DNA of 64,000 nt from an uncultured Methanosarcinales archaeon (lineage in GTDB: Archaea > Nanobdellota > Nanobdellia > Woesearchaeales > DSVV01): contig CAYVNO010000001.1 in the NCBI GenBank assembly GCA_964452935.1, positions 25,537-89,536 on the forward strand, given 5' to 3'. This document shows positions 4,461 to 55,057 of the stretch, piece by piece; positions within the stretch are counted from its first letter, which is position 1, and every line of letters begins with the position of its first letter. The notes under the pieces were generated by a model, which saw only the letters and a list, made by a program, of their open reading frames with translations, searched no databases and was not told the DNA's origin. The position numbers and the translations under genes are program-made.

Positions 4461-4504
4461 GAACTATTTGCCTTTAATGGTTGATAGGAGGGTGGAGGAA
4501 AAGA

Positions 4505-5155: not shown

Positions 5156-5156
5156 A

Positions 5157-6017
5157 ATGGCTCCAAAAGCAATAATTTCACCAGAAAAGAAGAAAGTTGT
5201 AAAAGAGTTTGTGAAATTACTAGAGGAATATCCTATTGTTGGGGCTGTAAATATGGAGAATCTTCCTACAAAACAACTTCAGAACATGAGAGCTCAGTTA
5301 AGGGGCACTGTTGTTATGAAGATGACAAAGAGGAGATTGATTAGGATAGCGATTGAGAGTGTTAAAGATAAGAAAAAAGGTGTTGAAGAGTTAATACCTT
5401 GTTTGAAAGGAATGCCAGCATTACTTTTTACAAAAGAAAACCCGTTTATATTATATAAAAAATTACAAAAAAATAAATCAACAGCACCTGCTAAAGCGGG
5501 TCAGACAGCACCAAAAGAGATTGTTGTTAAAGCAGGACCAACACCTTTTGCTCCAGGTCCGGTTATTGGAGAGTTAGGTGCAGCAGGAATAAAAGCAGGT
5601 ATTGATGGTGGAAAGGTAGTAATCAAAGCAGACTCAGTTGTAGCAAAAGAAGGAGATGTTATTGATGCAAAACTTGCTGGGTTATTGACTAGATTGGGTA
5701 TTGAACCAATGGAAATTGGTTTAGATATAACGGCTGTTTATGAAGATGGTTCAATATTTACTAGAGATGTTTTAGCTGTTGATGAAGAAGAATATGTAAA
5801 CAATGTTTCACAGGCAAGCAAATGGGCATTTAATTTGGCTGTGGAAGCAGGAATAATGACGACAGAAACTACAGAGTTCATGGTACAGAAAGCATTTAAG
5901 GATGCAAAGAGTTTAGCAGGAGAAGCAAATATTTTATGCAGTGCGACTGTCAATGATGTTTTGGCAAAAGCAAATGCGCAAGCAGCTTCATTAAAGAGTG
6001 AGGCGAAGTTAGATTAA
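5157..6017 (+). CDS. rpl10: 50S ribosomal protein L10 (acidic ribosomal protein P0)
   Basis: MAPKAIISPEKKKVVKEFVKLLEEYPIVGAVNMENLPTKQLQNMRAQLRG is a typical archaeal P0 N-terminus. The gene lies 2 nt after the L1 stop. Confidence 0.85.
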   Translation: MAPKAIISPEKKKVVKEFVKLLEEYPIVGAVNMENLPTKQLQNMRAQLRGTVVMKMTKRRLIRIAIESVKDKKKGVEELIPCLKGMPALLFTKENPFILYKKLQKNKSTAPAKAGQTAPKEIVVKAGPTPFAPGPVIGELGAAGIKAGIDGGKVVIKADSVVAKEGDVIDAKLAGLLTRLGIEPMEIGLDITAVYEDGSIFTRDVLAVDEEEYVNNVSQASKWAFNLAVEAGIMTTETTEFMVQKAFKDAKSLAGEANILCSATVNDVLAKANAQAASLKSEAKLD

Positions 6018-6060
6018 TAATCCTTATTTAATGGATTAATGGTTACGGAGGATGAATAAA

Positions 6061-6375
6061 ATGGAATATGTGTACACGGCAATGTTGATTCACAAAGCAG
6101 GTGGCAAAGTTGATGAAGCTACTGTTAAAAAAGTTTTAGAGGCTGCAGGTGTTAAACCTGATGAAGCAAGAGTAAAAGCTTTAGTTGCAGCACTTGATGG
6201 CGTTAATATTGATGAAGCTATTGAAAAAGCAGCATCAGTTCAGGTTGCAGCAGCAGCTCCAGCAGGAGACGCAGCTCCAGCAGCAGAAGCTAAGAAAGAA
6301 GATAAGAAACCAGCTGCAGAAGAAAAGAAGTCAGATGAACAAGCAGCAGCAGGACTTGGCTCATTGTTTGGGTAG
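6061..6375 (+). CDS. rpl12: 50S ribosomal protein L12 (P1 stalk protein)
   Basis: The protein runs [30 protein letters not shown]...[17 protein letters not shown]. It has an Ala/Glu/Lys-rich hinge and a conserved GLGxLFG C-terminus. A GGAGG lies 11 nt upstream of 6061, whereas the ORF-track ATG at 6052 is too close to the SD. Confidence 0.85.
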
Positions 6376-6376
6376 A

Positions 6377-6396
6377 GTGTTAAGCAAGCTTAACAC
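6377..6396 (+). terminator. Perfect palindromic hairpin immediately after the L12 stop
   Basis: The sequence gtgttaagc-aa-gcttaacac has 9-nt inverted arms and is followed by tttgagcc. Confidence 0.4.
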
Positions 6397-6485
6397 TTTG
6401 AGCCTCCCCATATTTACTGTAACATGGGATTGGCCCGCCCCGACAACTGATTGATCACCTAGCAGAATTGACCAATAAGTGATTT

Positions 6486-9521: not shown

Positions 9522-11642
9522 ATGATATTTGGATCTGGTTATCAAGGGCCTATGCGAAGTTATCATGCTAGCCCTGCAGGCTATTTAGGTAGTTTTAGTC
9601 ACCCTGTTTCTGATGATGGGCAGAAGATTGAAGGGAGTATAGATGGTTCTGGCGCTGTTGGCGTTGCTGATATGGGTATGAGTGTAACAGAAGGAGCTAG
9701 GTTCGGAAGTTTAATCCAAACAGCACAAAATGCCATTAGGTTAGGTACTGGTGCGATTGAACTAGCAACTATCCAGGGTGGAGCAGAACCTGGCGGAGCT
9801 GAGAGTTATGGGCATGAGGCAAGACAGGCTTTGAGAGAGTTAGCTAGAGCTAATAATGTTTATTTTACAAGTGTTCATACTCCAACTAATTCGGTTGCTA
9901 ATTTATCTGGATATAATCCACAGGAGAGAGGTTTTAATGATGAGTTTAGACATAGAGAAATGGAAGAGGTAAAAAAAGCTATAGAATTTGCAGCAGATGT
10001 TGGTGGTGGTGCAGTGGTGGTTCATACTGGAGAGGCACAAAGAGATATGTCAACTGCTCCTTGGAATAGAGAGATTTATCCTGGGCAGAAAGAATTCTTA
10101 GGCTTTGATGAAGAACAAGGAAGACAGGTATTGTATATGGTTGATGATAGAAATGGAAAATTAATAACAGAAGTTAGAAAATCTCAAACAGTTTTTGAAC
10201 CAGATTTTGAGACTACTGTTATTGATGGAAAAGAGGTTTATGTTGATCAGGATGGAAACCCGTTACAAGATGAAACTGATTTTGATAATTTATTTAGGAG
10301 GGTTCCAAAATGGGATTCTGGCGGAACAAAGTTTAAGACAAAAAGAAGAGATTGGCAATTTTTTGTAGATAAGGCTGCAAGATGGAATCAAAATCATCCA
10401 AGAGAGGATGGGAGAGACTGGACTGCAGAAGATATATTTTTTAGAACACAGATGGAAACTAGAGTATTACAACATAGAGGTCATTCTCTGTTTTATGGTA
10501 GAAGTTATGAAGAGTCACAAAGGGCAAGAGATGAGATGTTGAAAGCCTATGATCATTATAAAAAATTAGAGGATAGTATGTCTCCTGAAGAGTTATGGAA
10601 GGTTATGGAACAAGATTCTAAAATGGGGAGACATGGTTATGGTGTCATGGGGAAGTTTGTACCAACTGAAGGTAAATTACCTACACAGATCATAAAAGAA
10701 GCAATTCATCAACAAAACTTAGATTTAAAACACATTAGAGAGGCTTCAGCAGCAGCAGATGCAGAAGCTGATCAGATTATTGAAACATTAGAACATGTTA
10801 AACCTGCACAAGTTTATGCAAAAGAGATTACATCAAAATCTTATGCAGAGGCTGGAATTCTTGCAATGGAACAGACAAAGAATAATCCTTATGCAAAGAG
10901 AGATATATTTGTTGCACCAGAAAATTTATGGCCTGAGATGGGTTATGGTACACATCCAAGGGAGTTGTTGGAGTTAGTTACTGTTGCGAGAGAGAAAATG
11001 ATACAGTTTTTGACTGAGAAAGAGATTCCAAGTAGGCAGGAAATGAGGGATGAAGAAGGTAATTTAAAGATGGAGATTAATCCATTCTATACAGGGATGA
11101 ATAAAAAGGATGCACAAGAGTATGCAAAAAGACATATTAAAGCGACATTTGATACACAGCATTTAGGAATGTGGTGGAAACATTTTCAACCTATGCCTGG
11201 TGAAACTAAGGATGAAAGAAAAGGAAGATTTATGACTTGGTTTAAGGACGAAGTAAAAAATTTACATGAACATGATATTATTGGGCATATTCATGCTGTT
11301 GATAGTTTAGGTGGTGGACATCATCACTTACCTGTTGGACAGGGAGATTTGCCTATTAAAGAGATGTTAGAATGGATGAGAAGAAAAGGTTACAAGGGAA
11401 CTATGATTTCAGAAGGTCATGAAGAAGATGGAAGATTTGGTGCAGGAAGACAGATGACTGAAACTTGGAGTCATTTAGGAAGTAATATGGTTGGGTTAGG
11501 TTATGGAATGGGTGCTCCAGCTCCAGCATTTTCAGATGTACATCATTCTTATTTCAGAAGTATGCAGAATCCTTATTTTATATTTGGTGCTTATTCTCCA
11601 AGCAATGATTGGCAGCTATGGACCCAGGTTCCGATGGAGTGA
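9522..11642 (+). CDS. Large (706 aa) protein with split xylose-isomerase-like TIM-barrel (AP endonuclease 2 family) signatures, of higher GC than the surroundings
   Basis: N-terminal ...AIELATIQGG...VYFTSVHTP...GGGAVVVHTGE and C-terminal HDIIGHIHAVDSLGGGHHHLPVGQGDLPIKEMLEWMRRKGYKGTMISEG match sugar-phosphate isomerase/epimerase TIM-barrel strands. They are separated by a ~370-aa insert of unknown nature. Confidence 0.4.
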   Translation: MIFGSGYQGPMRSYHASPAGYLGSFSHPVSDDGQKIEGSIDGSGAVGVADMGMSVTEGARFGSLIQTAQNAIRLGTGAIELATIQGGAEPGGAESYGHEARQALRELARANNVYFTSVHTPTNSVANLSGYNPQERGFNDEFRHREMEEVKKAIEFAADVGGGAVVVHTGEAQRDMSTAPWNREIYPGQKEFLGFDEEQGRQVLYMVDDRNGKLITEVRKSQTVFEPDFETTVIDGKEVYVDQDGNPLQDETDFDNLFRRVPKWDSGGTKFKTKRRDWQFFVDKAARWNQNHPREDGRDWTAEDIFFRTQMETRVLQHRGHSLFYGRSYEESQRARDEMLKAYDHYKKLEDSMSPEELWKVMEQDSKMGRHGYGVMGKFVPTEGKLPTQIIKEAIHQQNLDLKHIREASAAADAEADQIIETLEHVKPAQVYAKEITSKSYAEAGILAMEQTKNNPYAKRDIFVAPENLWPEMGYGTHPRELLELVTVAREKMIQFLTEKEIPSRQEMRDEEGNLKMEINPFYTGMNKKDAQEYAKRHIKATFDTQHLGMWWKHFQPMPGETKDERKGRFMTWFKDEVKNLHEHDIIGHIHAVDSLGGGHHHLPVGQGDLPIKEMLEWMRRKGYKGTMISEGHEEDGRFGAGRQMTETWSHLGSNMVGLGYGMGAPAPAFSDVHHSYFRSMQNPYFIFGAYSPSNDWQLWTQVPME

Positions 11643-11717
11643 ACGTTTTTATTGGTAGAATTTATTTCTTTTCTAATTTCTTTTTATCCTCCTCTTGTAA
11701 GAAGTTTTCTTTTGAAA

Positions 11718-12494
11718 TTATTGATTCTCCAAGATTATTTTCAATATCTTTTCTTGTTCTTTTTGCAATGCTTCCCCTTTTATGGCAGAGTCTTTGCATC
11801 TGTTAAATCCTTGGGAGTCTTTTTTTCTTGTAATGTCTGTGGTTGCTTTTTCACCAATCATATTAAGAATTAATTCCCAATCGCCCATGTGATCTCTTAG
11901 ATTTTGGTTTTTCTTTGTCAGTCCTTTGAATTGTTTATATTCTGAGATTGTTTTTCCAAAACTAGCTTTGGAGATTTCGTTAGTTAGAATTGCAAAGTCT
12001 TTTTGTTCTTCAATTCCTCTATTTTTCCACTCATCTGTTAGTTCTTGTCTTATTGCTATTCCTCTTAATCTTTTGTCAATCCAATCTTTTGGATAACCTT
12101 TTAGTTCATAGTATTTCTTTACTCTATCTTGTGCAATTTCTGGGTTTTCTATTTCTTCAATTCTTTCGTATCCGACTTGAGCTAGCCATTGTTTGAATGG
12201 TTCTGCTTTTTTTGAAGGTATTGATTGGATTATCCTAAACATTGACTTAGTGTTAGCACAGTCCGTAAGTCTCATTTTGCCATCAGGAGCTTCTAGTTTC
12301 AACTGTCGACAATTTGTCGATAGTTCAATTCCATGTTCAGATTCTCTCTTTTTCAATCTATACCAATAATCTTTAGCGTCTACACTATCTGTAAGGGCTA
12401 AAACAACATCTATTACTGAGAAATACCATTCGCCACTACACCTTATTCTTCTGATCTGTTTTCCTTGGAATACTATTAGTTTGTTCTTTTCCAT
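11718..12494 (-). CDS. dinD: DinD-like DNA-damage-inducible protein (Bro-N/KilA-N N-domain + DinD C-domain)
   Basis: The C-terminal KGLTKKNQNLRDHMGDWELILNMIGEKATTDITRKKD aligns with E. coli DinD KGLKKNQKILDHMGSTELAANLF...KLKRD. The N-terminal FQGKQIRRIRCSGEWYFSVIDVVLALTDS is Bro-N-like. Confidence 0.65.
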   Translation of the reverse strand: MEKNKLIVFQGKQIRRIRCSGEWYFSVIDVVLALTDSVDAKDYWYRLKKRESEHGIELSTNCRQLKLEAPDGKMRLTDCANTKSMFRIIQSIPSKKAEPFKQWLAQVGYERIEEIENPEIAQDRVKKYYELKGYPKDWIDKRLRGIAIRQELTDEWKNRGIEEQKDFAILTNEISKASFGKTISEYKQFKGLTKKNQNLRDHMGDWELILNMIGEKATTDITRKKDSQGFNRCKDSAIKGEALQKEQEKILKIILENQ

Positions 12495-22241: not shown

Positions 22242-25200
22242 TTATTTCTTCTTTGGTTTAATTCCTAGTTTCTTCTCTGTTTTTGCGACCGTTAGTGTTG
22301 TTTTTACAACTGAGTCGGGGTTTAATGACATGGAATGGATGCCTGCTTCAACTAAGAATTCAGCAAATTCTGGGTAATCAGAAGGGGCTTGCCCACAGAT
22401 TCCAATGTACTTGTTCATTTTATTAGCAATATGTATTACTCTTCTAATTAATGTTTTTACGGCTTGGTTTCTTTCTTCATACACATGTGCTACTAATTCA
22501 GAGTCTCTGTCTACACCTAATGTTAGTTGAGTTAGGTCGTTACTTCCTATTGAAAATCCGTCAAAATGTTCTAAGAATTCTTCTGCAAGAATTACGTTAG
22601 ATGGTATTTCACACATTAGGATGATTTTTAAGTTATCTTTTCCTTTTTCTAGTCCATTTTTTTTCATTTCTTTTAGAACTAATAACCCTTCTTCTACTGT
22701 TCTACAGAACGGAATCATTAAGACAATGTTTTTTAGTCCAAACTCTTTCATTACTTTTCTCATTGCCATACATTCTAATGCAAATGCGTCTTTGTATGCA
22801 GGAGAGTAGTATCTTGAAGCACCTCTCCAGCCAATCATTGGGTTGTCTTCAGTTGGTTCGAAATATTTCCCACCAATTAAGTTTGCATATTCGTTTGATT
22901 TAAAGTCTGATAATCTTATAATAACTTTTTTTGGATAGAATGCTGCTGCTAATGTACCTACTCCTTGTGCAAGCTTATCGACAAAGAATTGTGCTTTGTT
23001 TTTGTAGCCTTCTGTTAGTTTGTTGATCTGATTTCTGATTTTATTGTCTGTTACTTTATTGAATTCTAGTAATGCTCTAGGATGTACTTTTATATATGAA
23101 TTTATTATGAATTCTTCTCTTGCAAGGCCAACTCCTGAATTTGGTAAGAAACTGAATTCAAATGCTTCTTCAGGATTACCAATGTTCATCATTATTTCTG
23201 TTCTTGTTTCTGGAATTGATTTAAGGTTTGTTTTATGTATTTTGAATTTGAGTAATTTATCATAGATATAACCAATTTCACCTGAAGAACAGTCTGTTGT
23301 TATCTTTTGTCCTTGTTTTATTAGTTGTGTTCCATTCTCTGTCCCGACAATACATGGTACTCCAAGTTCTCTAGAGATGATTGCTGCATGACAGTTATTT
23401 ACTAATACAGGGGTTAATTTTTCTGTGAATACTGCGTAATTGTGATTATCTGCTACAGTTATGTTGTATACATCACCAAAGCTTTCTTCTTTTAAGTCTA
23501 CCATTCTGTTCATACGTAAGTCACTTTCTAATAACTCTCTTATCTTTTGTGAATTTTCTTTTTTTAGATCTTCTTCTGAGATATACAAATTTTTATCATA
23601 TCTTAATTTAGTCTGACCTCTTACTTCGTCTTTATTGAATATCTGTCTTGTAGAAAAGAATCTGCTTTTTATCACTCTATTTCTTATAACTCCCTTTATT
23701 CTTTTTGTATACTTTAATATCTTATCTAATTTCTCGACAATTTGTACATTGTGGATGTTCCTATTTTTTGTGACTTGAGGTATAATTCCAATTCTAAGAC
23801 AAGCTAACATAGTTCCTTCTAGAAGATTTCGATTTGAGATATAAATATTAATTCTATTATTATAAAATGTTCCGTCCCCATCAATTACTCCTGCTAAAAA
23901 ATTATATGCTACTTCTTCATCGCTTTGAAGAAGGGTAGTTACGATTTGATTTTTTTGTTCATGCATATTGTATGCTATGTCTTTTGAGTATAATCTAAAT
24001 GCCGTTGCTTGCCCTCTGACCTCTTTTCCTCTGATCATTCCGGTAGATATCTTTTTCTCAAAAGGAACAAAACTTTTATTGTATACTGATGTCATACAGT
24101 CTTGCATATGGTTAATGAATCTTTCTTTTTCTGGGATTTGCTTTTGAATAAATTGGACTTCTCCATGAGTTCGTGATCTGTAAATATGTCCATCCGTCAT
24201 TATTCCTCCCAATAAGTATGCTAATCTCTTATCTTTTTCAGTGGTTTGATTAATCATGGGAATATGTTGGGCAATACACACCATTTCTTTGTCGAGAAGC
24301 ATTTGTTTTATTTCTGTATCAACTAATTGTCTGTTTTTAATGTTGATCATTTTGTGATCCGGGGTAATTGTTAATGTGTTGTCCCTTATCTTTCCCCTAA
24401 TAGAAACACTTATCTTTATTTTTTTGGATTTTTTCTTCATGGATGCAATAATTGGTTTCCATTCAATTCTCTTTGTTTGTCTATTCAATGAAGGGGTTAG
24501 TAATCCATTGTATCCTTCTTCATGAACTTGTTGCATTGTCATAAATCCTTTATTTGTTAAAATTTTGGTGTTACCATCAAAACAAGTTCTTCCTCCTCTG
24601 TTTGTAACTATTGCAGAGGCTATTTTCATAATTGGTTCCCAGTCTGGATCAGTCATATCTGTCACTAGGATTTGACCTTTTTTGAAATTATTAATGTCTT
24701 TTACGTCTTTGATTATATTTGCTGGACCTTGTCCTATTTTCATTCCTACAGCTTTTCCTTTTGCAACAATTTTTCCTTTTTGTTGTAATTTGTATTCTTC
24801 TAAAGTGTTTAAGTCTCTTTGACTCTGAACTGTTTCAGGTCTTGCTTGAACTATGAATAATTTTTTTGTTTTTCCATCTTTTGCCCATTCCATATCCATT
24901 GGTTTGAAATAGTTAGCTTTTTCTGAGTAATGGTCTTCTATAATGCATGCCCATTCTGCTAATTTTAGTACTTCTTTATCTTCTAGAACGAATTTCTTTC
25001 TATCTTCTTTGTTTACTGGAATATTTTTTACTGTTTTGTTACCTTCCGAGGCATAAATCATTTTTATTTTCTTTGGACCAACTTTTTTAGAGATTATTGG
25101 TTTGAACCCTTGTTTTAATGTTGGTTTGAAAACATAGTATTCGTCTGGGTTTACTGCTCCTTGTACAACATTTTCTCCTAGACCATATGCTCCTGTTATA

Positions 25201-25880
25201 AAAACAGCATCTTTAAATCCTGTTTCAGTATCAATGGAAAACATAACTCCTGAACATGAGAGGTCTGATCTAACCATCTTTTGAACTCCTATGCTTAGTC
25301 CTATGGAAAAATGGTCGAATTTTTTATCTACTCTGTATGAGATTGCTCTGTTAGTAAATAATGATGCAAAACATTTTTTACATGCGGCAATTAAATCGTG
25401 ATCTCCTTTTATATTTAGATATGTTTCTTGTTGACCTGCAAATGATGCATCTGGTAGGTCTTCAGCAGTGGCTGATGATCTTACAGCGACATCTGTTCTT
25501 TTTCCGTATTCTTTGCATAGCTTTTTGTATGCTTTGATTATTTCTTGTTTTAGATCTTCTGGAAATTCTGCGTTCTTTATTAGCTCTCTTACACGATGTC
25601 CTTTATCTGCTAAGTCTCTCATGTCTTTTGTGTTTAATCCTTTTAGAATATTTTTTACTTCATTCCTTATTCCTGCTTTTTCTAATAGGTGATGGTATGA
25701 ATGTGCTGTGATTGCGAAACCGTTCGGAATATTTACTCCTTTTTTTGTTAGATTTCTATACATCTCTCCTAATGAAGCATTTTTTCCACCAACATGAGGA
25801 ACATCTTCAATACCTAGTTCGTTAAACCATAGAATGAACTCTTTTTCTTTGTTTTTTGGTTTTTTCTTGAATAATGCCAT
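22242..25880 (-). CDS. ppsA: Phosphoenolpyruvate synthase (pyruvate, water dikinase) interrupted by an intein
   Basis: N-terminal GGKNASLGEM...VPNGFAI is the PPDK_N ATP-grasp region. The catalytic motif TNRGGRT|CHAAIISRELGVPCIVGT is split by a 397-aa insert. The C-terminal PEP-utilizing TIM-barrel region is present. Confidence 0.9.
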   Translation of the reverse strand: MALFKKKPKNKEKEFILWFNELGIEDVPHVGGKNASLGEMYRNLTKKGVNIPNGFAITAHSYHHLLEKAGIRNEVKNILKGLNTKDMRDLADKGHRVRELIKNAEFPEDLKQEIIKAYKKLCKEYGKRTDVAVRSSATAEDLPDASFAGQQETYLNIKGDHDLIAACKKCFASLFTNRAISYRVDKKFDHFSIGLSIGVQKMVRSDLSCSGVMFSIDTETGFKDAVFITGAYGLGENVVQGAVNPDEYYVFKPTLKQGFKPIISKKVGPKKIKMIYASEGNKTVKNIPVNKEDRKKFVLEDKEVLKLAEWACIIEDHYSEKANYFKPMDMEWAKDGKTKKLFIVQARPETVQSQRDLNTLEEYKLQQKGKIVAKGKAVGMKIGQGPANIIKDVKDINNFKKGQILVTDMTDPDWEPIMKIASAIVTNRGGRTCFDGNTKILTNKGFMTMQQVHEEGYNGLLTPSLNRQTKRIEWKPIIASMKKKSKKIKISVSIRGKIRDNTLTITPDHKMINIKNRQLVDTEIKQMLLDKEMVCIAQHIPMINQTTEKDKRLAYLLGGIMTDGHIYRSRTHGEVQFIQKQIPEKERFINHMQDCMTSVYNKSFVPFEKKISTGMIRGKEVRGQATAFRLYSKDIAYNMHEQKNQIVTTLLQSDEEVAYNFLAGVIDGDGTFYNNRINIYISNRNLLEGTMLACLRIGIIPQVTKNRNIHNVQIVEKLDKILKYTKRIKGVIRNRVIKSRFFSTRQIFNKDEVRGQTKLRYDKNLYISEEDLKKENSQKIRELLESDLRMNRMVDLKEESFGDVYNITVADNHNYAVFTEKLTPVLVNNCHAAIISRELGVPCIVGTENGTQLIKQGQKITTDCSSGEIGYIYDKLLKFKIHKTNLKSIPETRTEIMMNIGNPEEAFEFSFLPNSGVGLAREEFIINSYIKVHPRALLEFNKVTDNKIRNQINKLTEGYKNKAQFFVDKLAQGVGTLAAAFYPKKVIIRLSDFKSNEYANLIGGKYFEPTEDNPMIGWRGASRYYSPAYKDAFALECMAMRKVMKEFGLKNIVLMIPFCRTVEEGLLVLKEMKKNGLEKGKDNLKIILMCEIPSNVILAEEFLEHFDGFSIGSNDLTQLTLGVDRDSELVAHVYEERNQAVKTLIRRVIHIANKMNKYIGICGQAPSDYPEFAEFLVEAGIHSMSLNPDSVVKTTLTVAKTEKKLGIKPKKK
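23394..24584 (-). mobile_element. Intein (397 aa) with a LAGLIDADG homing-endonuclease domain, inserted at the GGRT/CHAAI catalytic-His motif of PpsA
   Basis: It begins with CFDGNTKILT (Cys1, block A). LAGLIDADG-like YLLGGIMTDGHI and FLAGVIDGDGTF blocks are present. It ends ...VLVNN, followed by the extein Cys (CHAAI). Its in-frame excision restores the canonical PpsA motif. Confidence 0.85.
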
Positions 25881-30935: not shown

Positions 30936-31700
30936 TTGATAATACTTATATACTACTTTGACTCTACTTTTGAGTATATGAAAAATAAGGTGTTGAGAGA
31001 TCTGAATGAGTTGATAAGGCAGGTAGAGAATATGCCTCCTGAGTTGGTTACTGGTAAGTATGACCCTTATGATTATAAGGCTCAGAAGTTAGCTGTTTAT
31101 AAAAGGGATGTTGATAAAATGTTATCTAATGTGAAGATGGATATTTTTAAGTTGTGTTTAGAATCTCTAAATAATAGAAATGAGGGAGTGATTTTTGATA
31201 TTATTATTAATTTAAAGAATCTCAATGTTGATAAGGAAAAGTTGATTAGTTTGAAAGAAGCTGTTGGTTTATTGAATTATGTTAAGGTTGCAAAGCCAAG
31301 AGAGCTGGAGTTAAAGATTCCTGTGGGGATTCCTACAGATATTAGAGATGATATTGTTGCAGATATGAAAGAGTTACAGAAATCTTATAATTCTACTTGT
31401 TATAGGGCGGCTGTTATTTTATGTGGTAGGGTGTTAGAGACTGCTTTACATAGAAAGTATTATGACACAACTGGTTTTGATATTTTGGAGAAGAATCCTG
31501 GGATTGGGTTAGGTAAGTTAATTGCAAAGTTAGATGAGAAGAATGTAAAGTTTGATCCAGGATTAACACAACAAATACATTTGATAAATCAGGTTAGAAT
31601 TTATTCTGTGCATAGGAAGAAAGAGGTGTTTTATCCTTCATCTGCACAATGCTATGCAATGATTTTGTATACAATGGATGTTTTGGGTAAGATGTTTTAG
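30936..31700 (+). CDS. Hypothetical protein with a C-terminal HEPN-like (Rx4H) motif
   Basis: The C-terminus ...QIHLINQVRIYSVHRKKE contains R-x4-H in a predicted helical region. The start is possibly at MKNKVL (30978). The gene is divergently arranged with the PPDK_N paralog. Confidence 0.3.
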   Translation: MIILIYYFDSTFEYMKNKVLRDLNELIRQVENMPPELVTGKYDPYDYKAQKLAVYKRDVDKMLSNVKMDIFKLCLESLNNRNEGVIFDIIINLKNLNVDKEKLISLKEAVGLLNYVKVAKPRELELKIPVGIPTDIRDDIVADMKELQKSYNSTCYRAAVILCGRVLETALHRKYYDTTGFDILEKNPGIGLGKLIAKLDEKNVKFDPGLTQQIHLINQVRIYSVHRKKEVFYPSSAQCYAMILYTMDVLGKMF

Positions 31701-31735: not shown

Positions 31736-32158
31736 ATGAAGGCGAAATACTATGCATTAATCGGATTTGTCCTTGCTGTTGTTTTTTACTATTTATCTTC
31801 AATTATTTCTTCGATGTTTGATATTTTTAATTCTGTCCGTTATGTTCTTGGAAGCATTTATCCGTTAACATTCTTGGTTGTTTTGTTTCTATTGCTCCCT
31901 TTACTTCTGCTTCTTAGTAAGAATAAGATATGTTCTATTTTAAGTATAATTTCTGGATCTTTATTAATAACTGGTTTTGGTTTAGTCTTGTTTAAATTAG
32001 TTTTTACTGTTTCAAGAAGGTTGTTGGGCTATTCACCTTATACTTCAAATGCTTTTGAAGTTGTTTTATCCCTGTTGTTACTTGGAGTTTTTATTGTTTC
32101 TGGAGTCTTGTATATCATCGCAGGTATTAAAGCCTTGAAAGAAGGGAAGGAAGAGTAA
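31736..32158 (+). CDS. Hypothetical small membrane protein (4 TM)
   Basis: The protein is hydrophobic with multi-TM composition. Confidence 0.4.
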   Translation: MKAKYYALIGFVLAVVFYYLSSIISSMFDIFNSVRYVLGSIYPLTFLVVLFLLLPLLLLLSKNKICSILSIISGSLLITGFGLVLFKLVFTVSRRLLGYSPYTSNAFEVVLSLLLLGVFIVSGVLYIIAGIKALKEGKEE

Positions 32159-32160
32159 TT

Positions 32161-32232
32161 CTATAAGAATTCTTGTTCAACTATCATTTTATCATAAGTA
32201 GGATATTCTTTTGTAATTGCAGGTTTTATTGA
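32161..32232 (-). repeat. Duplicated copy of the 3' end of the radical SAM gene (matching 33573-33645), forming a direct repeat that brackets the AbiE cassette
   Basis: The minus-strand translation ...SIKPAITKEYPTYDKMIVEQEFL* matches the real gene's C-terminus KLKPAIVKEYPTFDKMIVEMEFL*. DNA identity is ~85% over ~72 nt. Confidence 0.7.
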
Positions 32233-32253
32233 AATTATGCATAACATTTATAA

Positions 32254-32874
32254 ATGATAGGATACTTTTATATCCTAATGACAAATAAAAATATAATACA
32301 ATGGATTGTGAAGAATGAAGATTTAGTAGTGCCAACTTTATTTAAACCAGTGCAATTTAGGATTATTAAGAAGCTTTCAAAGAATAAAAAGTTAACAGAG
32401 AATGAAAAAAGATATTTAAGAGGTAAGATGAAAGATAAGTTTAATGTTTTGCAGGAGTTAATGAAGGTTAATGTAATGAGAGATGAATTTAGAGTATTAG
32501 TTGATAATATTGGATCCTATTATGTGACTGGTTTAGAGGCTTTAAAACATAATGGTTATGGTTGGTATTTTGAACCAAAGATTGTGGAAGTAATAAATAC
32601 TAAGATTGAGGGAAGGTTTGTTGTTAATAATAAAACTGTTAAATTTATAAGAGTTAAATCAATATCAAAAAGTAAAACAAAGATTGATAAAAAATCCGGG
32701 ATTATATATGCAACAAATGAGCAAATATTAAAAGATATAGTATTCACTAAAAACAATTATACAGAATCTGTTTGGATGCAGATGTTTTCAAGATATGGGA
32801 TGATGTTTGCAAAAGGATTTAAGGAGTTATTGTCTAAAAAGAGCAAAATTAATTATGCACTTTATGGGGTTTGA
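32254..32874 (+). CDS. AbiEi-like antitoxin (type IV TA / abortive infection AbiE system)
   Basis: YYVTGLEALKHNGYGWY resembles the conserved AbiEi wHTH region. The gene overlaps the downstream AbiEii gene by 4 nt (ATGA). The start may be at 32281. Confidence 0.5.
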   Translation: MIGYFYILMTNKNIIQWIVKNEDLVVPTLFKPVQFRIIKKLSKNKKLTENEKRYLRGKMKDKFNVLQELMKVNVMRDEFRVLVDNIGSYYVTGLEALKHNGYGWYFEPKIVEVINTKIEGRFVVNNKTVKFIRVKSISKSKTKIDKKSGIIYATNEQILKDIVFTKNNYTESVWMQMFSRYGMMFAKGFKELLSKKSKINYALYGV

Positions 32875-33572
32875 GAATGACAAAGATTTTGGATGTTTTA
32901 AGAAAGTTTCTTAAAGAGGTGGAAAATGATAATCCATTTAATTTAGTTTTAAAAGGAGGAACTGCTTTAGCTATTTATTATTTGAATGATCATAGGGAAT
33001 CTGAGGATCTGGACTTTGATGTTGATAAGTCGTTGATTAAAAAACATGAAGAGATAATTGGTTATTTTGTTAATGTTTTGGGAATTTTAAAACAAAAACA
33101 AATTATCAATAATTTCAGGATAACAAAACAGGGTTTTGCTTCTACAGACAGATACCACATTAAACTTGAGATTGAGACATATAAAACCTTTTATACAAAA
33201 ATTGATGTGGACTTTGTTGATTTACCAAAGAAGTTAGTCAATAAAGATAATCTTTTCCTATATTCCTCTGAAAGAATCTTTGTTACAAAGGCCATCACTT
33301 TTATTAGTAGAAAAGAGTTCAAGGATTTATATGATTTGTTCTATTTGGTTGGGAAGATTGATGTTAGGAAGTTTAAGAATAAAGAGAATGTTGTTAAATT
33401 GATTGAGGAAGTAATAGCAGTTGCTAATGAAGAGGATATTCTTAAGCTTTATAGATCTGCTTTTAGAAATGTCGATATGAAATTTAAGAATTTAAAAGAG
33501 TCGCAGTTGGATTCTTTTCTTAGGACAATTATAAGGAAACTTAGGGTTTTGATAAATAAATTGAAGAAATGA
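32871..33572 (+). CDS. AbiEii/AbiGii-family nucleotidyltransferase toxin (DUF1814)
   Basis: LKGGTALAIYYLNDHRESEDLDFDV matches the GGTAL ... R-x-S-x-D-x-D nucleotidyltransferase signature of AbiEii. Confidence 0.7.
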   Translation: MRMTKILDVLRKFLKEVENDNPFNLVLKGGTALAIYYLNDHRESEDLDFDVDKSLIKKHEEIIGYFVNVLGILKQKQIINNFRITKQGFASTDRYHIKLEIETYKTFYTKIDVDFVDLPKKLVNKDNLFLYSSERIFVTKAITFISRKEFKDLYDLFYLVGKIDVRKFKNKENVVKLIEEVIAVANEEDILKLYRSAFRNVDMKFKNLKESQLDSFLRTIIRKLRVLINKLKK

Positions 33573-34622
33573 TTATAGGAATTCCATTTCAACTATCATC
33601 TTATCAAAAGTAGGATATTCTTTGACAATTGCTGGCTTTAGTTTGAGTTGTTTAAGTTCATCTTTTAGTTTATCTACAACTTCAACAGTTGTTAGTAGTC
33701 TCTTATTATCTATTTCAATCAGTTCTTTTGGGATGTCAAAGTTTTTTATTAAGTAATTCTTTGTTTTGCTTAAATTCTTTCCGTAAATAACTCCCTTTAT
33801 TAGCATTCCTTCATTGTCTACATAATCAAATGGTTTAGAGGCGTTCTTTGCTCTTCTTTTTAGTCTGTTTGCTAATTGCACCCGATCTTTTAGAGTACAT
33901 GTGCAATAGTGGATGTTTTTTATTTTTGAGAATTTTAAGAGTTTTTTTGCTAGTTGTTCACTTCCTTTTACACCATAGCTAATCCTATCTTTTGTTGTGT
34001 AATTGTTTTCAATTAATTTATTAGCGTTTGTGTCTGAGACTTCTAATTCGTTAATATTTAAGAAATCTATTTTGTTCTCTAAGAATTTGATTAATTTTTT
34101 TGTCTCTTTCTCTTTATTTGGGATTGCAGGGATTTCAACACCAATTTTCCAATCATATTCTTTTGCTAGTTCTATTCTTTTCCATAGTTTATTGTTTGTT
34201 ATTTCAGGATGGAATCTTATCTCATCTAAACCTGCTTTGTAGAGTTTTTCTAGAGAATTCTTGTTAACTAATATTGGTGGTGTGTAGAGATGAATATGGA
34301 ATTTTTTACCAAATGTTTTCTTTAATTCTTTGATGTATTTACATGTTCTTTCTAGTTTTACTAGTGGATCTCCTCCTGTGATTCCTACTCCTTTTGAATC
34401 ACATAGTTTAATTTCTGTAATTAAATCTTTGAAGTCTCTAGAAGGTCTTTCATTGAAATAAATTACATCTTTATTCTTTTTTTGATCAGAGATTGGACAA
34501 TAAAAACATTTTCTTGGGCAAATACCTGTAATAAAAAGAACAGTTTTTTCACCTTTAACACATTGTCTACATCCTTTTGGAAGTTTTCCTTTAAGAAATG
34601 AGAAGAATTTTGTTTTTTTCAT
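33573..34622 (-). CDS. Radical SAM protein (COG2108-type, PFL-activase-related)
   Basis: LFITGICPRKCFYCPIS is a CxxxCxxC radical SAM cluster motif, followed by GITGGDPL. Confidence 0.7.
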   Translation of the reverse strand: MKKTKFFSFLKGKLPKGCRQCVKGEKTVLFITGICPRKCFYCPISDQKKNKDVIYFNERPSRDFKDLITEIKLCDSKGVGITGGDPLVKLERTCKYIKELKKTFGKKFHIHLYTPPILVNKNSLEKLYKAGLDEIRFHPEITNNKLWKRIELAKEYDWKIGVEIPAIPNKEKETKKLIKFLENKIDFLNINELEVSDTNANKLIENNYTTKDRISYGVKGSEQLAKKLLKFSKIKNIHYCTCTLKDRVQLANRLKRRAKNASKPFDYVDNEGMLIKGVIYGKNLSKTKNYLIKNFDIPKELIEIDNKRLLTTVEVVDKLKDELKQLKLKPAIVKEYPTFDKMIVEMEFL

Positions 34623-35161
34623 ATTGCTTTTGTTAATAAATCTGATTTTGTTATTATTCCTAGGACTTTTCCGTTCTCTGATACTATTACTAATGGATAA
34701 TGTTTTAGTAGATTTGATACAACATCCATATTTGCTTCTTTTGTTATTGTTGGTGGTGAATCTTCCATAATATCTTTTATTTTTATGTTGGCATCTTTTG
34801 ATATGACTGCGTCTAAGAGTATTTTTTCTGAGATAAATCCCACAATGTTTTTGTCTTCTGACACAGGCATTTGTGAGATGTTGTATTTTTTCATCTTTTT
34901 TATTGTGTCTTTTAGTGAATCGTTTGGTTTTATGTTAATAATGCCTTTTTTGTAGATATCTTTTGCTTTTAACTCTTGTTTATGGTTTAATGTGTTTAGT
35001 GTGTCCATGATTTTCTTTACTTTTGTGAATGTTGGATCAATCATTCCAGATTCAATCTTTGCGATTAATGATTGGGAAACTCCTGAGAATTTGGCTAGCT
35101 CTACTTGTGTTAAGTTGAGTTTTTTTCTCATTCCTTTGATCTCGTTTAGGTTATCTATCAT
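34619..35161 (-). CDS. Transcriptional regulator, XRE-type HTH fused to a CBS domain pair
   Basis: N-terminal LTQVELAKFSGVSQSLIAKIESG is the HTH. Two CBS-like repeats follow (...ISQMPVSED...VGFISEKILL...; ...HYPLVIVSENGKVLGIITKSDLL). The gene overlaps the radical SAM gene by 4 nt. Confidence 0.7.
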   Translation of the reverse strand: MIDNLNEIKGMRKKLNLTQVELAKFSGVSQSLIAKIESGMIDPTFTKVKKIMDTLNTLNHKQELKAKDIYKKGIINIKPNDSLKDTIKKMKKYNISQMPVSEDKNIVGFISEKILLDAVISKDANIKIKDIMEDSPPTITKEANMDVVSNLLKHYPLVIVSENGKVLGIITKSDLLTKAI

Positions 35162-35292
35162 TAGTCGTAAGGGAATAATTCCTCTTTAAATATCTATCGG
35201 TTGGGAATATTCCTATCGGAATATTTTATTCAAGAAGTGTTTAAAAGGAGGTGTGAGTTTTTGTAGTAAATCATACTTGGAGGTTGATTATA

Positions 35293-36504
35293 ATGAAACA
35301 AAGTAAGTATTTTTTTACATCAGAGAGTGTATCTGCTGGACATCCTGATAAGTTATGCGATCATATTAGTGACGCTGTTTTGGATGCAATATATACAAAA
35401 GATCCTAATGCTAGGGTTGCTGTTGAATGTTTAACAAAGACAGGATTTGTTGTTGTTGCTGGGGAGGTAACTACGACTGCATGGGTAGATATCCAGAATA
35501 TTACAAGGAATACAATCAAAGAGATTGGTTATGATAAGCCAGAGTATGGTTTTGATGGGAACACATGTGGTGTTTTAGTATCATTATCTGAACAGAGTCC
35601 TGATATTTCTCAAGGGGTTACTGAAGGAGAAGGTGCATTCAAAGAACAAGGTGCAGGAGATCAAGGCTTGATGTTTGGTTATGCAACAAATGAGACACCT
35701 GAATTTATGCCACTACCAATTATCATGGCACATAAGTTATTGAAAGAGCTTGATAGAATTAGGAGGGCTAATGAGTTAACTTATCTAAGGCCGGATGCAA
35801 AGTCTCAAGTAACTGTTGAATATGAGAATGGGGAAGCAAAAAGGATTGATGCTGTTGTTATTTCAACACAACATGATCCGGATGCAACACATGAACAAAT
35901 CATGTCGGATGTAGTTGAAAAGGTTATAAAACCTGTTTGTGGTCAATGGTTAGATGAGAATACAAAGTTCTTTGTTAATCCAACTGGAAAATTTGTAGTT
36001 GGTGGACCTGTAGCAGATGCAGGTTTAACAGGAAGAAAAATCATTGTTGATACATATGGTGGACATGGAAGTCACGGTGGTGGATGTTTTTCAGGGAAAG
36101 ATCCTTCGAAAGTGGATAGGTCTGCTGCTTATATGGGTAGGTATATTGCAAAGAATATTGTTGCTTCAGGTTTAGCAGATAAGTGTGAAGTACAGCTTGC
36201 ATATGCAATTGGTGTTGCAGAACCTGTTTCTGTTCTAACACATTGCTTTGATACGAATAAAGTTCCAGAAGAAAAGATCTCAGAGTTAGTTAGGAAACAT
36301 TTCCCTCTAACACCTGCTGCGATAATTAATCATCTGAATCTTAGAAGACCAATCTATAAGAAAACAGCAGCATATGGTCATTTTGGAAGAGATGATCCTG
36401 ACTTTACATGGGAAAAGACAGATAAGGCAGATGTTTTGAAGCAGGATGCCGGTTCTTTGGGTGAACCAGAGAAATCTGGAGATCAAGTACCTTTAGATGC
36501 ATAA
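35293..36504 (+). CDS. metK: S-adenosylmethionine synthetase, bacterial/eukaryotic MetK type (not archaeal MAT)
   Basis: [40 protein letters not shown] and the rest of the three-domain MetK signature are present. The start is taken at MKQSKYFF. Confidence 0.9.
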
Positions 36505-49756: not shown

Positions 49757-49771
49757 GTGATTACTTTCTGT

Positions 49772-50686
49772 ATGAAACGGAAACTAATCAAACAGGGTGG
49801 TGGTGGGGTCACATTCTATGTGCCAAAGAAATGGGTTGATAAACAAGGCTTGAAACCTGGTGATGAGATTGATGTAATTGAGGAAGATGATAAATTAATT
49901 GTTCTAAATGAAGCGATGACTCAGAATAAGACTGTTGAGATTGATATTAAGGGTATGGATCATACAGCTCTTTTGAAAACAGTTATCTCTTATTATGAGA
50001 TGGGTTATTCTGAGATTACTATTATTTCAGATAATGGAATGGTTTATATTCCAACTTTATTAAAAGAAAAGAAGATAACAGTAAAAGAAGAGGTTGAAAG
50101 ATTAGTAAATAGGCTTATTGGTTTTGAGTTGATTAGTTTTGAGTCAAATAAATATGTTTTGAAAGATATTGCTATGACTTCTCCTACTGAGTTTGATAAT
50201 GTTCTAAGGAGAATCTTTTATTTATTATTAGAATTTCAAAATTATGTAAAAGAGACAGTTGATAATAAGAATAAAGTCAAAGATTATAATGAACATCATG
50301 ATAGTATTGCTAAGTTTATTAGTTTTTGTATTAGGTTATTGAATTTAAGTATGGATAAAACTAATGTTGAGAAGAATAATTTACATACAATACTAACATT
50401 GTTGGATAAGTATACTGATGCGTTAAGATGGCTATTATACGATTACACTGCTAGTGGAATAAAAGATAAAAAATCAATCTTTGCTATAATGGATCATTTT
50501 AGAATGTATTATAATTTATTTTATAATTATGATATAAAATTAATAAATGAGTTAGATAGAGAAAGAATTAAGTTAAGAAAAACATTGAAATCAGATGAAG
50601 CAGTTATTCACTTTTCTTCTGTTTTAGAATATATCATGGCAATGATTAGACCAACTATTTGTTTAGTTGAGAGTTCCAAGTCTTAA
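49772..50686 (+). CDS. Transcriptional regulator with an N-terminal AbrB/SpoVT swapped-hairpin domain and a PhoU-like helical C-domain
   Basis: MKRKLIKQGGGGVTFYVPKKWVDKQGLKPGDEIDVIEEDDKLIVL is a typical AbrB/MazE-type domain. The C-terminal ~220 aa are helical and PhoU-like. Confidence 0.5.
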   Translation: MKRKLIKQGGGGVTFYVPKKWVDKQGLKPGDEIDVIEEDDKLIVLNEAMTQNKTVEIDIKGMDHTALLKTVISYYEMGYSEITIISDNGMVYIPTLLKEKKITVKEEVERLVNRLIGFELISFESNKYVLKDIAMTSPTEFDNVLRRIFYLLLEFQNYVKETVDNKNKVKDYNEHHDSIAKFISFCIRLLNLSMDKTNVEKNNLHTILTLLDKYTDALRWLLYDYTASGIKDKKSIFAIMDHFRMYYNLFYNYDIKLINELDRERIKLRKTLKSDEAVIHFSSVLEYIMAMIRPTICLVESSKS

Positions 50687-52852: not shown

Positions 52853-52986
52853 TCTTTTTCCTCGAATAGTTTTTTTAATGCAAACTCAATTGCGTGTGAT
52901 TTGTTTCTGAAAACACCGGAACGCATGCTATCTTGAATCTTTACAACAATTTCTTCGTCCACTGTTATGCTTAGTTTGTGTTTCAT
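52849..52986 (-). CDS. Ribbon-helix-helix (CopG/Arc-like) small DNA-binding protein, 45 aa
   Basis: This ORF was not in the track. MKHKLSITVDEEIVVKIQDSMRSGVFRNKSHAIEFALKKLFEEKE has a beta-strand followed by two helices. It overlaps both neighbours by ATGA. It is a paralog of the ORF at 55318-55455. Confidence 0.6.
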   Translation of the reverse strand: MKHKLSITVDEEIVVKIQDSMRSGVFRNKSHAIEFALKKLFEEKE

Positions 52987-53909
52987 CTTGGTTGATTCTC
53001 CCTGTAATTATCTCTTTCAGCTCTTGCTTTCATTTGTGGTGTTTGTAATTGTATTTCTAGATTGGAATAATCTTCTGAGGATTTTTTAATTATTATGCCT
53101 TGGAATCCATTCGGTTTTGGGAATGTTATTAAGTCACGTACATCATCAACAGAATAATCATAAATACATCTCATTAAGTATAAACAATGTCCTGCTGTTT
53201 CGGCAGTTATTCTTATACCATTTATATCTCCAATATCATTTACACTTCTCAATGAAGGATTTCTTTGAATCCATGCATAAACACTTTCTGGTGTTTTTAC
53301 TCTAGTTTCTATATCTATTACTTTGTCTCTTTTATGCCTCTCTTTTAAGAATTGCCTCCATTTCTCAAGCTCTTCTGGATCAAGACTATTCTCTTCTATA
53401 TGTTTGAGAATTTCTTCATATAATTTTGGGTCTTGTTCTATAATTTCTTTTCTTGTGAGATATCTTTTCGGCTTAAACTCTTGGAATCCTAATTGTTCTA
53501 CTGTTTCTTCTAGTTCTGGCATTTCTTCGCCAATAAAAAATGCTCTTCTATTATTTAGGTAGTGAGGAATATATAGTTCTAGGTCGTGCTGTTGTGTACC
53601 TGTAAATCGTGGTCTTCCTTCTTCAAAATCAACATAGTAGAACATTGTTCTATTGTCTTCTCCTTGTTCTACTATGTATCCCACTCCAGTATGATTAACC
53701 TTTTTTACACGGTACATTGTTAGGTGATGTCCTACTGTACCAATGTTTAGTGCGACAACTTTTCCTTGTAATGAAGATTGAATTCCTTCATATTTTTCTA
53801 CTCTTCTAAATCCTAGTTCATGGAGGGCTCTACGACTGTTTCTAATTCTTTGTTTAACACTGTCACTCATTGCTCTTCTCATTATTTTATTGTGTAGTGG
53901 TTCTGTCAT
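52983..53909 (-). CDS. RelA/SpoT-like (RSH synthetase-fold) nucleotidyltransferase, small-alarmone-synthetase-like
   Basis: C-terminal SVNDIGDINGIRITAETAGHCLYLMRCIYDY...DLITFPKPNGFQGIIIKK...LEIQLQTPQM aligns with the RelP/RelQ synthetase core (D..G.R....; PK.NGYQSLH; VEIQIRT). Consensus Y (to F) and R (to Q) positions are substituted. Confidence 0.6.
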   Translation of the reverse strand: MTEPLHNKIMRRAMSDSVKQRIRNSRRALHELGFRRVEKYEGIQSSLQGKVVALNIGTVGHHLTMYRVKKVNHTGVGYIVEQGEDNRTMFYYVDFEEGRPRFTGTQQHDLELYIPHYLNNRRAFFIGEEMPELEETVEQLGFQEFKPKRYLTRKEIIEQDPKLYEEILKHIEENSLDPEELEKWRQFLKERHKRDKVIDIETRVKTPESVYAWIQRNPSLRSVNDIGDINGIRITAETAGHCLYLMRCIYDYSVDDVRDLITFPKPNGFQGIIIKKSSEDYSNLEIQLQTPQMKARAERDNYRENQPR

Positions 53910-54055: not shown

Positions 54056-55057
54056 ATGGTATATATTTACAAGAAAACAATACATGGAAAGAACTATTAT
54101 TATCTTAGGGTATCTAAGAGGGTTAATGGTAAATTAGTGGTTAAAGATGTTGCTTATTTGGGTAATGATATATCTAAGATTGAAAGTAAGTTAAATAATT
54201 TAGTGGAGTATAAGGATGAGATAAGAAAAGGTCATAGAATCATAAAGAAATTTATACAATCAAATTATTTCTTACAGAAAGTAAAAAAATTGAAATTAAA
54301 GAATATTAATTATTTAGATAAAGGAATGTTAGAACAGGTTGAGGCTATAAAATTACATTATAAAAATAATTTTTTAAAATTAGATGAATTAACAAAGAAA
54401 GAGGTCTATAAACATTTTTTAATTGATTTTGCTTTTAATACAACCTCCATAGAAGGTAATACAATCACTCTAGATGAAGCAAATAAACTTTTGAATGAAG
54501 ATATTTTACCAAAAAATAAAACTCTTAGAGAAGTTTATGATTTGCAGAATACTGAAAACACTTTTTTATGGCTTTTAGACGACAAACCTTTGTTTAATGA
54601 AATGTTAATCACTGATATTCATGATAGATTGCTAGAGAAAATTGATGTAAGAAAAGGCTATAGGACTCAAGATATTAAAGTTTTCAAGTCAAAATTTGAG
54701 GCTTCTCCTGTTAAATACTTAAAGATTGATATGAGGGTTTTAATGAAGTGGTTTAAAGATAATAAAAAGTTACATCCTCTTGTTTTAGTTGGATTATTGC
54801 ATCATAAGTTAGAGAAGATACATCCGTTTGCAGATGGAAACGGAAGAACAGGGAGAATGTTGATGAATTATATTTTAATGAAAATGGGTTTTCCTCCTTT
54901 AATTATATCTAAAAAAAGAAGATCAGATTATTTGGCTGCTTTAAGGAATGCAGATAATTGTGATTTAAATGATAATGATTCTAGTTATTATAAAAAGTTG
55001 ATAACTTATTTAGCTGAGGAGATGGTTTCTTCTTATTGGTCTAATTTTAATGTTTAA
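54056..55057 (+). CDS. fic: Fic/Doc family protein (putative AMPylase)
   Basis: HPFADGNGRTGR matches the canonical Fic motif HPFx[DE]GNGRxxR. Confidence 0.9.
   Translation: MVYIYKKTIHGKNYYYLRVSKRVNGKLVVKDVAYLGNDISKIESKLNNLVEYKDEIRKGHRIIKKFIQSNYFLQKVKKLKLKNINYLDKGMLEQVEAIKLHYKNNFLKLDELTKKEVYKHFLIDFAFNTTSIEGNTITLDEANKLLNEDILPKNKTLREVYDLQNTENTFLWLLDDKPLFNEMLITDIHDRLLEKIDVRKGYRTQDIKVFKSKFEASPVKYLKIDMRVLMKWFKDNKKLHPLVLVGLLHHKLEKIHPFADGNGRTGRMLMNYILMKMGFPPLIISKKRRSDYLAALRNADNCDLNDNDSSYYKKLITYLAEEMVSSYWSNFNV

Follow-up and report, generated by a model that had tools for sequence, protein, structure and literature searches.

A two-gene AbiE-type module between diverged copies of a radical SAM gene end in a Woesearchaeota genome

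Two copies of a gene end bracket an AbiE-type module

We analysed a stretch of 64,000 nucleotides of archaeal DNA (positions 25,537 to 89,536 of contig CAYVNO010000001.1, assembly GCA_964452935.1; hereafter the window), in which a two-gene toxin-antitoxin (TA) module of the AbiE type adjoined a housekeeping radical SAM (rSAM) gene and was bracketed by two copies of the 3' end of that gene. The rSAM gene (33573..34622, minus strand) encoded a 349-aa protein of the Radical_SAM plus DUF8061 type according to Pfam. It was conserved in Woesearchaeota and other DPANN-type archaeal genomes, and its homologues placed the window in the Woesearchaeota, a DPANN lineage. The C-terminal motif AIVxEYPTxDxxxVExxFL of this protein was kept in 90 loci.

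In a repeat search, positions 32162-32228 and 33574-33640 emerged as direct repeats that aligned over 67 nt without gaps, at 84% identity and with their starts 1412 nt apart. The local alignment score was 45, compared with 25 for the best of 200 shuffles. A preliminary description of this DNA, made from the letters alone, had reported flanking repeats of about 72 bp; the repeat was real, but its length was overestimated, since the homology spanned only 67-68 nt (22 codons plus the stop) and ended at 32228 and 33640. The next-best match of the rSAM tail within the window scored 18, and therefore exactly two tail copies were present.

Both copies were read from the minus strand, and their roles were as previously described. 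The right copy (33573..33640), assigned by the repeat search and codon comparison, was the functional 3' end of the rSAM open reading frame (ORF), reading ...LKPAIVKEYPTFDKMIVEMEFL* with the stop at 33573-33575. The left copy (32161..32228) held the last 22 codons in frame and its own TAG stop at 32161-32163 (...IKPAITKEYPTYDKMIVEQEFL*). It was directly preceded by a stop codon and thus represented an orphan tail. A hidden Markov model (HMM) of the rSAM tail gave it a score of 47.2, the same as the real tail.

The elements of the locus were closely packed. The left neighbour, a 140-aa ORF for a small membrane protein (31736..32158, plus strand, from the ORF list), had its stop 2 nt from that of the orphan tail, and a junction spacer of about 11 nt (32229..32239) lay between the orphan tail and module-specific conserved DNA, as defined by the start of DNA homology and an upstream alignment of more than 50 modules. 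On the other side, the stop of the second module gene (33570-33572) abutted the rSAM stop (33573-33575) with 0 nt between them. Independent assemblies, drawn from at least six samples, contained the same arrangement with 99.9-100% identity, which excluded an assembly artefact.

Genes and control region of the module

By its sequence, the second gene of the module (32877..33572, plus strand) clearly encoded an AbiEii (DUF1814) nucleotidyltransferase toxin of 231 aa and belonged to PF08843 (E=1.8e-20; bit score 74, cutoff 22.5). It was also matched by 23 PADLOC AbiEii models (best E=4.8e-17). The KGGTAL...SEDLDFD motif was unchanged in 30 homologues, with G27, G28, T29, D44, D46 and D48 invariant. 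The start at 32877 was the one called in public records.

The first gene (32278..32874, plus strand) occupied the antitoxin position 2 nt upstream of AbiEii. Its likely start at 32278 gave a protein of 198 aa, in line with homologues of 195-201 aa. Thus, the pair had been correctly described as ending at 33572, but its genes likely started at 32278 and 32877 rather than at 32254 and 32871. The partner gene stood beside AbiEii in 68 of 83 loci, and most of the other 15 were short contigs or had the match at a contig edge. The partner proteins were 52-65% identical between loci and formed a small family of about 30 clusters at 50% identity. Neither the single protein nor the family (15 members in the profile scans) had a sequence match in Pfam, PADLOC or PDB. 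An AlphaFold2 model built from 12 sequences had a pLDDT of 82, and a Foldseek search of PDB with it gave weak hits to nucleotidyltransferase-like folds (E~0.05) and to the AbiEi homologue Rv2827c (1zel, E=3.3). Using hhalign, one motif could be weakly aligned to the antitoxin of a different AbiE pair (E=0.007, probability 5%). Therefore, of the names AbiEi and AbiEii that had been given to the pair, only the latter had sequence-profile support. We refer to the first gene as an AbiEi-like partner, whose membership of AbiEi is unproven and which would act as the antitoxin.

The putative promoter and operator of the module were located at 32240..32277 (plus strand). A TATA-like element, TTTATAAA, was found at 32247-32254, and the inverted repeat AGGATA-N6-TATCCT at 32259-32276, directly 5' of the ATG. 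Both were kept in nearly all homologous modules, and the order of a TATA-like TTTATATAT followed by AGGATA-N6-TATCCT upstream of the ATG was common to more than 50 of them. The palindrome occurred once in the window, against 0.03 occurrences expected. Judging from this arrangement, the two elements are probably a promoter and an autoregulatory operator. The control region of about 40 nt 5' of the ATG was strongly conserved across loci L102-L181 (L numbers denote the loci compared here), GC-rich hosts included, in modules whose proteins were just 40-65% identical.

The operator half-site TAGGATA was present at 32258-32264 and 32271-32277, and it also occurred once per rSAM tail copy (32199-32205 and 33611-33617), with just five other matches in the 64 kb. 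In the tails it was the coding sequence for EYPT and lay within the longest identical run of the two copies. Its occurrence there may be a coincidence, or the motif may be a putative binding site of the partner protein in the target. A role as a microhomology junction was ruled out, as 23 nt separated the motif from the junction.

Assemblies of the same population (L001-L003, L095, L096 and L100) repeatedly broke inside AbiEii, at 32998 and at 33075-33082. Two of them, L001 and L002, ran on past the break into 111 nt of unrelated, GC-richer DNA that had no match among the sequences compared here. The region of the breaks encoded the family-invariant HRESEDLDFD motif. It may be that k-mers shared with other AbiE modules of the community tangled the assemblies at these points, or that there was a real structural variant.

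The module is a lineage-specific insertion

The nearest relative at this locus was L004, in which the rSAM protein was 69% identical and the gene order was CBS-HTH, rSAM, a DUF4145-like gene in the opposite orientation and PPDK_N. Orthologues of all four genes were present in the window (53% identity for the DUF4145-like protein and 45% for PPDK_N). L004 had no AbiE genes, no membrane-protein ORF and a single rSAM tail. Moreover, among 80 species-representative rSAM loci, none had AbiE within 6 kb of the rSAM gene, and an HMM scan of their six-frame translations revealed no second rSAM tail. In particular, a duplicated tail without AbiE, the finding named beforehand as speaking against an insertion, was not seen in these relatives. 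Since L004 was empty and the 80 loci lacked both AbiE and the second tail, the cassette was a lineage-specific insertion, in agreement with what had been proposed.

Other searches gave negative results. None of the 83 AbiE loci had an rSAM gene or an rSAM tail adjoining the module. No empty site was found within the population, where all of the at least 10 contigs with an identical rSAM gene or left neighbour carried the insertion. A degenerate DNA pattern for both tails had 0 matches in metagenome contigs, a search that also missed the source population itself. The left-neighbour ORF had no Pfam or PADLOC match, and its single distant homologue (47% identical, beside purA) was uninformative on the empty site.

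The two tails were compared using L004 as the outgroup. They were 81-84% identical in DNA, and each was 77% identical to the L004 tail, so that they were each other's nearest relatives, though far from identical. Tails of different species had a mean identity of 48% (99th percentile 74%). The copies differed by five synonymous codons, counting the TAG/TAA change of the stop, and by three amino-acid changes, two of which were full three-base swaps. The frame and the stop were intact in both. They had identical runs of 16 and 12 nt and shared derived states relative to L004. Of the 12 base changes polarised by L004, 6 were derived in the orphan and 6 in the intact copy. Read in the direction of the gene, the derived changes of the orphan fell in codons 2-6 and those of the intact copy in codons 12-22, one block on each side of the longest identical run, AAAGAATATCCTACTT. 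The pattern is suggestive of a single crossover within the repeat that joined a resident allele to an incoming allele of greater divergence. The preliminary description had distinguished a genuine copy from a replacement copy. The right copy indeed ended the gene; nevertheless, this division may be too simple if each copy is half ancestral and half derived, for which support was weak.

Similar footprints at related modules

The first three related loci (L010, L012 and L014) had no flanking repeats, and a one-off event was suspected until a larger sample was scanned. This sample included 80 metagenomic loci encoding AbiEii relatives, of which 36 had both genes and adequate flanks and were used. 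In each, 500 nt upstream of the module were aligned to 500 nt downstream, with a score threshold of at least 38. Flanking repeats reaching this threshold were found in 9 of the 36 loci, the window included. After removal of duplicates and syntenic loci, this amounted to about 6 independent events in about 28 loci. Among the controls, the 99th percentile for mismatched locus pairs was 28, and when pairs of segments were placed at random in Woesearchaeota loci at the same spacing, only 3 of 596 reached a score of 38.

The duplicated segments came from different genes. The closest parallel was L113, in which about 131 nt of the 3' end of a MiaB-like radical SAM gene were duplicated with the same geometry as in the window. 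Namely, the orphan abutted the stop of the upstream OapC gene and ended 13 nt before the conserved start of the module, and the intact gene overlapped the AbiEii stop. L105 and L183 had 80 nt of the 5' end of a topoisomerase gene, and L146, L149 and L153 had 81-116 nt of the 3' end of UvrB; in all five, the orphan was upstream of the module and the intact gene downstream of AbiEii. In L123, 52 nt encoding a histidine-kinase C-terminus were found as an orphan downstream of AbiEii, with a truncated HATPase_c fragment upstream. In L137 and L138, the repeat was an AT-rich, promoter-containing segment with one copy immediately 5' of the partner gene and another immediately 3' of AbiEii. In the four clear cases, the orphan was at the promoter end of the module and the intact gene at the AbiEii end.

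Repeat lengths were 52-148 nt across loci. The gap between repeat and module varied from 0 to about 380 nt, which argued against defined element termini. All seven orphans were in frame (7/7), and the pooled ratio of nonsynonymous to synonymous differences (pN/pS) between orphan and intact copies was about 0.25. The two copies look like alleles that were kept under coding constraint. Homologues of the module with 40-65% identity were found in unrelated contexts. Together with the restriction of homology to the segment from promoter to stop, this suggests, at the level of sequence comparison, that the module is mobile.

The UvrB-linked loci gave an indication of the age of such footprints. In a GC-rich clade the module was located beside the 3' end of uvrB (L146, L149 and L153, and also L145, L152, L155, L156 and L159), and an orphan tail with the UVR motif was present in all three of the uvrB-linked loci with enough upstream flank (L146, L149 and L153). 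These three loci were syntenic on both sides and therefore represented one old, vertically inherited insertion. Over a 66-nt core common to them, the identity between the orphan and intact tail of one genome was 94, 89 and 79%, which equalled or exceeded that of orthologous copies in different genomes (70-86%), and lineage-specific substitutions were present in both copies of one genome. Thus, the orphan and intact UvrB tails evolved in concert, via gene conversion or repeated replacement, and orphan tails can be long-lived in otherwise compact genomes.

A single insertion of this kind would be ordinary. What was noteworthy was that the footprint recurred at different genes around one clade of archaeal AbiE-like modules with no mobility gene.

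Absence of mobility genes and element ends

The Pfam scan of 54 ORFs of the window took in about 12 kb on either side of the cassette and another 20 large ORFs farther away. It detected no integrase, no recombinase and no transposase among them, as had been stated for integrases before, and the repeat-bounded unit contained just the two AbiE genes. Of the integrase and transposase families, none was represented more than once among the 144 genes immediately next to about 70 related modules; these neighbours were mostly UvrB, other TA genes and housekeeping genes. No relatives of the AbiEii module were found on IMG/VR viral contigs, and no tRNA genes or Rfam matches were found in the region.

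The DNA homology between the window and other modules was confined to about 32240-33570, from about -38 nt through the AbiEii stop, with its start at 32237-32243. Since nothing outside this promoter-to-stop segment was conserved, there were no terminal inverted repeats and no attC-like site. With respect to integrons, no conserved sequence 3' of the AbiEii stop was found across modules, and no integrase was found. With respect to transposons, there was no transposase and no terminal inverted repeats or conserved ends, and the repeats were 52-148 nt long and 75-94% identical. A scan for sigma-70 promoters and terminators was uninformative because the host is an archaeon.

In the 3.5-kb flanks on each side of the modules, a larger repeat-bounded island was found in L142 alone. 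There (1-6442), a 120-nt repeat bracketed a whole TA islet without an integrase. In addition to the present AbiE module, the islet held a second, different AbiE-type pair whose antitoxin weakly matched DUF6088, as well as a nucleotidyltransferase/HEPN-like pair and a RelE-like pair, both read by eye.

Origin of the footprint

We tentatively favour, at a confidence that stops somewhat short of calling it probable, a homology-anchored and recombinase-free insertion of the module together with a diverged foreign allele of the rSAM gene end. A self-contained module (TATA element, palindromic operator, partner and AbiEii) would have entered horizontally, directly after the rSAM stop. In the incoming DNA, the module would have been located beside a diverged allele of the rSAM 3' end, and this allele would have served as the homology anchor. 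One possible route is a single Campbell-type crossover of a circle of about 1.4 kb in the 67-nt tail. The other is homologous pairing on the gene side combined with an illegitimate join on the promoter side, that is homology-facilitated illegitimate recombination. By both routes, the gene would stay intact and the 22-codon orphan tail would be displaced to the far side of the module. After the insertion, deletion between the repeats would be selected against, as it would lose an addictive TA pair, and non-crossover gene conversion between the tail copies would be tolerated.

The preliminary description had left a choice between a decayed or minimal integrative element and a recombination-mobilised TA cassette. 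According to the former, an integrase targeted the rSAM 3' end, an attP site carried the replacement tail, and the element decayed to the TA pair and its att repeats. Imperfect direct repeats that rebuild a gene 3' end are the classic attL/attR footprint, the identical 16- and 12-nt runs could act as a core, addiction would favour retention of the TA pair during the decay, and the L004 site is empty. However, we found no positive evidence for such an element: there was no integrase among the 54 ORFs scanned in the window and no recurrent integrase family near related modules, no relatives on viral contigs and no conserved termini. Moreover, exact decay to the promoter-to-stop segment would have been required independently at four or more target genes, and no larger intermediates were seen, the sole wide-spaced repeat (L142) enclosing other TA genes and no integrase. 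Thus, we regard an origin from a site-specific element as unlikely, and the recombination-mobilised cassette fits better, given that comparable diverged duplications of other gene ends flank related modules. The repeats could also have arisen in situ, by a long staggered break or template switching, if initially identical copies of 50-150 nt diverged and were partly homogenised by conversion. The range of repeat lengths is what non-specific staggered breaks are expected to give, the concerted evolution in the UvrB clade demonstrates conversion that could hold orphans in frame, and the age of the UvrB insertion, common to three syntenic lineages, makes long persistence possible. On the other hand, no identical or near-identical repeats were found (the best was 94%), no known mechanism repeatedly sets a break edge at a stop codon, and the even division of derived changes (6 against 6), with two triple-nucleotide swaps, is unlike a neutrally decaying orphan. 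We therefore give an in-situ duplication little credence.

It is highly improbable that the orphan is the remnant of a tandem rSAM paralogue, or of a resident rSAM gene that was replaced by a foreign AbiE-rSAM-CBS segment, with the likeness of the tails reflecting a conserved C-terminal motif. That motif is strongly conserved in the rSAM family, and the GC content of the 32-35 kb region was slightly below that of its flanks. Nevertheless, the identity of the copies exceeded the 99th percentile between species, and their shared derived states also argue for a closer relationship. No tandem paralogue or second tail occurred at other rSAM loci, the GC content of the AbiE, rSAM and CBS genes, overall and at third codon positions, was no outlier, the L004 orthologues also had low GC, and there was no step in the identity to L004 along the rSAM gene.

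Several points weigh against the homology-anchored insertion that we favour. The block pattern of the tails was not significant (runs test p~0.11 on 8 codon events, with a distant outgroup). The controls of the repeat scan were random positions and not other accessory-gene insertions, so that specificity for this module was unproven. The concerted evolution of the UvrB tails makes pN/pS weaker as evidence for a foreign allele, and its low value could equally result if an in-situ duplication was followed by gene conversion. We found no donor lineage and neither an empty-site allele nor a circular junction. The model needs a module that was already located beside the same gene in the donor, which leaves the very first insertion at each gene unexplained. 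Finally, in both the window and L113 the orphan is just 11-13 nt from the conserved start of the module, and the AbiEii stop touches or overlaps the stop of the target gene. Such tight junctions are unexpected for random fragment ends unless genome compaction removed the spacers.

A broader proposal, which we consider doubtful at present, is that the module clade is a mobile cassette which moves without a recombinase in DPANN and other archaea, with conserved host gene ends serving as its portable attachment sites. Such a cassette would travel with a short copy of a gene terminus, pair with the orthologous gene in a new host and thereby regenerate the repeats. Recombination between the repeats could allow a scarless loop-out, addiction would hold the cassette between moves, and conversion would keep the orphan competent for recombination.

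DPANN archaea have tiny genomes and few recognisable mobile elements, and little is understood of how they acquire genes for defence and addiction. If a TA module does spread with a piece of a neighbouring gene, this would be a minimal route of mobility that needs host recombination alone. It would also explain orphan gene-end fragments in compact genomes and tie addiction to the long-term stability of repeat-flanked inserts. Should the footprints prove to be no more than common att scars or old duplications, the insertion would be routine. Apart from the mechanism, the analysis defined a small, uncharacterised family of partners for archaeal AbiEii toxins, with a conserved region of TATA plus palindrome.

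Comparison with known systems

AbiE is a type IV TA and abortive-infection system that consists of the AbiEi antitoxin and AbiEii, a DUF1814 GTP-specific nucleotidyltransferase, and is represented in Lactococcus and Streptococcus agalactiae and by MenAT in Mycobacterium. Similar to AbiE, the module had two genes with a 2-nt gap, its AbiEii belonged to PF08843 with a GG...DxD motif, and its palindrome between promoter and start codon would suit a mode of control in which the first gene product represses its own operon. In contrast, its host was archaeal (Woesearchaeota) with a TATA-type promoter, and the 198-aa partner matched no AbiEi model of Pfam or PADLOC and gave only the weak fold and profile hits described above.

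Islands mobilised by tyrosine recombinases target the 3' ends of genes or tRNA genes and carry a replacement end, their imperfect direct repeats being attL and attR, and in Prochlorococcus tycheposon arrays there are cargo-only remnants flanked by partial target repeats. The insert in the window was likewise bracketed by imperfect direct repeats that included the target end, the target was kept functional, and the site of a relative was empty. It differed from these islands in that no integrase was found among the scanned ORFs of the window or beside related modules, and in being a 1.4-kb unit with no conserved ends and no viral or plasmid relatives.

The layout also resembled C-terminal displacement in Rhs, CDI (contact-dependent inhibition) and type VI secretion system (T6SS) effector-immunity loci, where a conserved gene serves as the anchor and an intact gene, cargo and an orphaned resident 3' fragment follow each other, without a recombinase and with diverged alleles. 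The window had the same succession of intact gene, cargo and orphan in its native downstream context, as did L113 beside OapC. The cargo of the window differed, as it was a TA operon of its own in convergent orientation and not a new toxic C-terminus with its immunity gene. Moreover, the duplicated segment was short (22 codons) and was not a variable toxin domain, and the mechanism is one that we infer here. To our knowledge, neither homology-facilitated illegitimate recombination nor C-terminal displacement has been described as such a route in archaea. The former was reportedly treated by de Vries and Wackernagel in 2002. It has been put forward to account for 3' ends left orphaned in T6SS and Rhs loci (Kirchberger et al. 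2017, PMC5361080).

Neighbouring genes and other observations

Upstream of the rSAM gene was its conserved partner, a gene with HTH and CBS domains according to Pfam (34619..35161, minus strand), whose end overlapped the rSAM start by 4 nt. Just upstream of this CBS-HTH/rSAM operon, MetK was encoded at 35284-36504 (plus strand) with three Pfam S-AdoMet_synt domains, which we take to be of the type of the bacterial and eukaryotic enzymes. L004 had a U32 peptidase in place of MetK, and thus synteny stopped at the CBS-HTH gene. The DUF4145-like protein, a weak Pfam match, was encoded at 30936-31700 (plus strand) in the window and at 11213-11920 (minus strand) in L004. It neighboured rSAM in both lineages, and its C-terminal 110 residues were very highly conserved.

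The phosphoenolpyruvate (PEP) synthase ORF at 22242-25880 (minus strand) was 1212 aa long and had LAGLIDADG_3 and Intein_splicing matches in the middle of the protein. The L004 orthologue was 814 aa long without either, which suggests an intein insertion specific to the lineage of the window. Further addiction- or defence-like genes in the window were a 309-aa ORF with a MazE-type domain (49757-50686), a RelA_SpoT-like small synthetase (52983-53909), a Fic/DOC protein (54056-55057) and a Bro-N domain protein (11718-12494).

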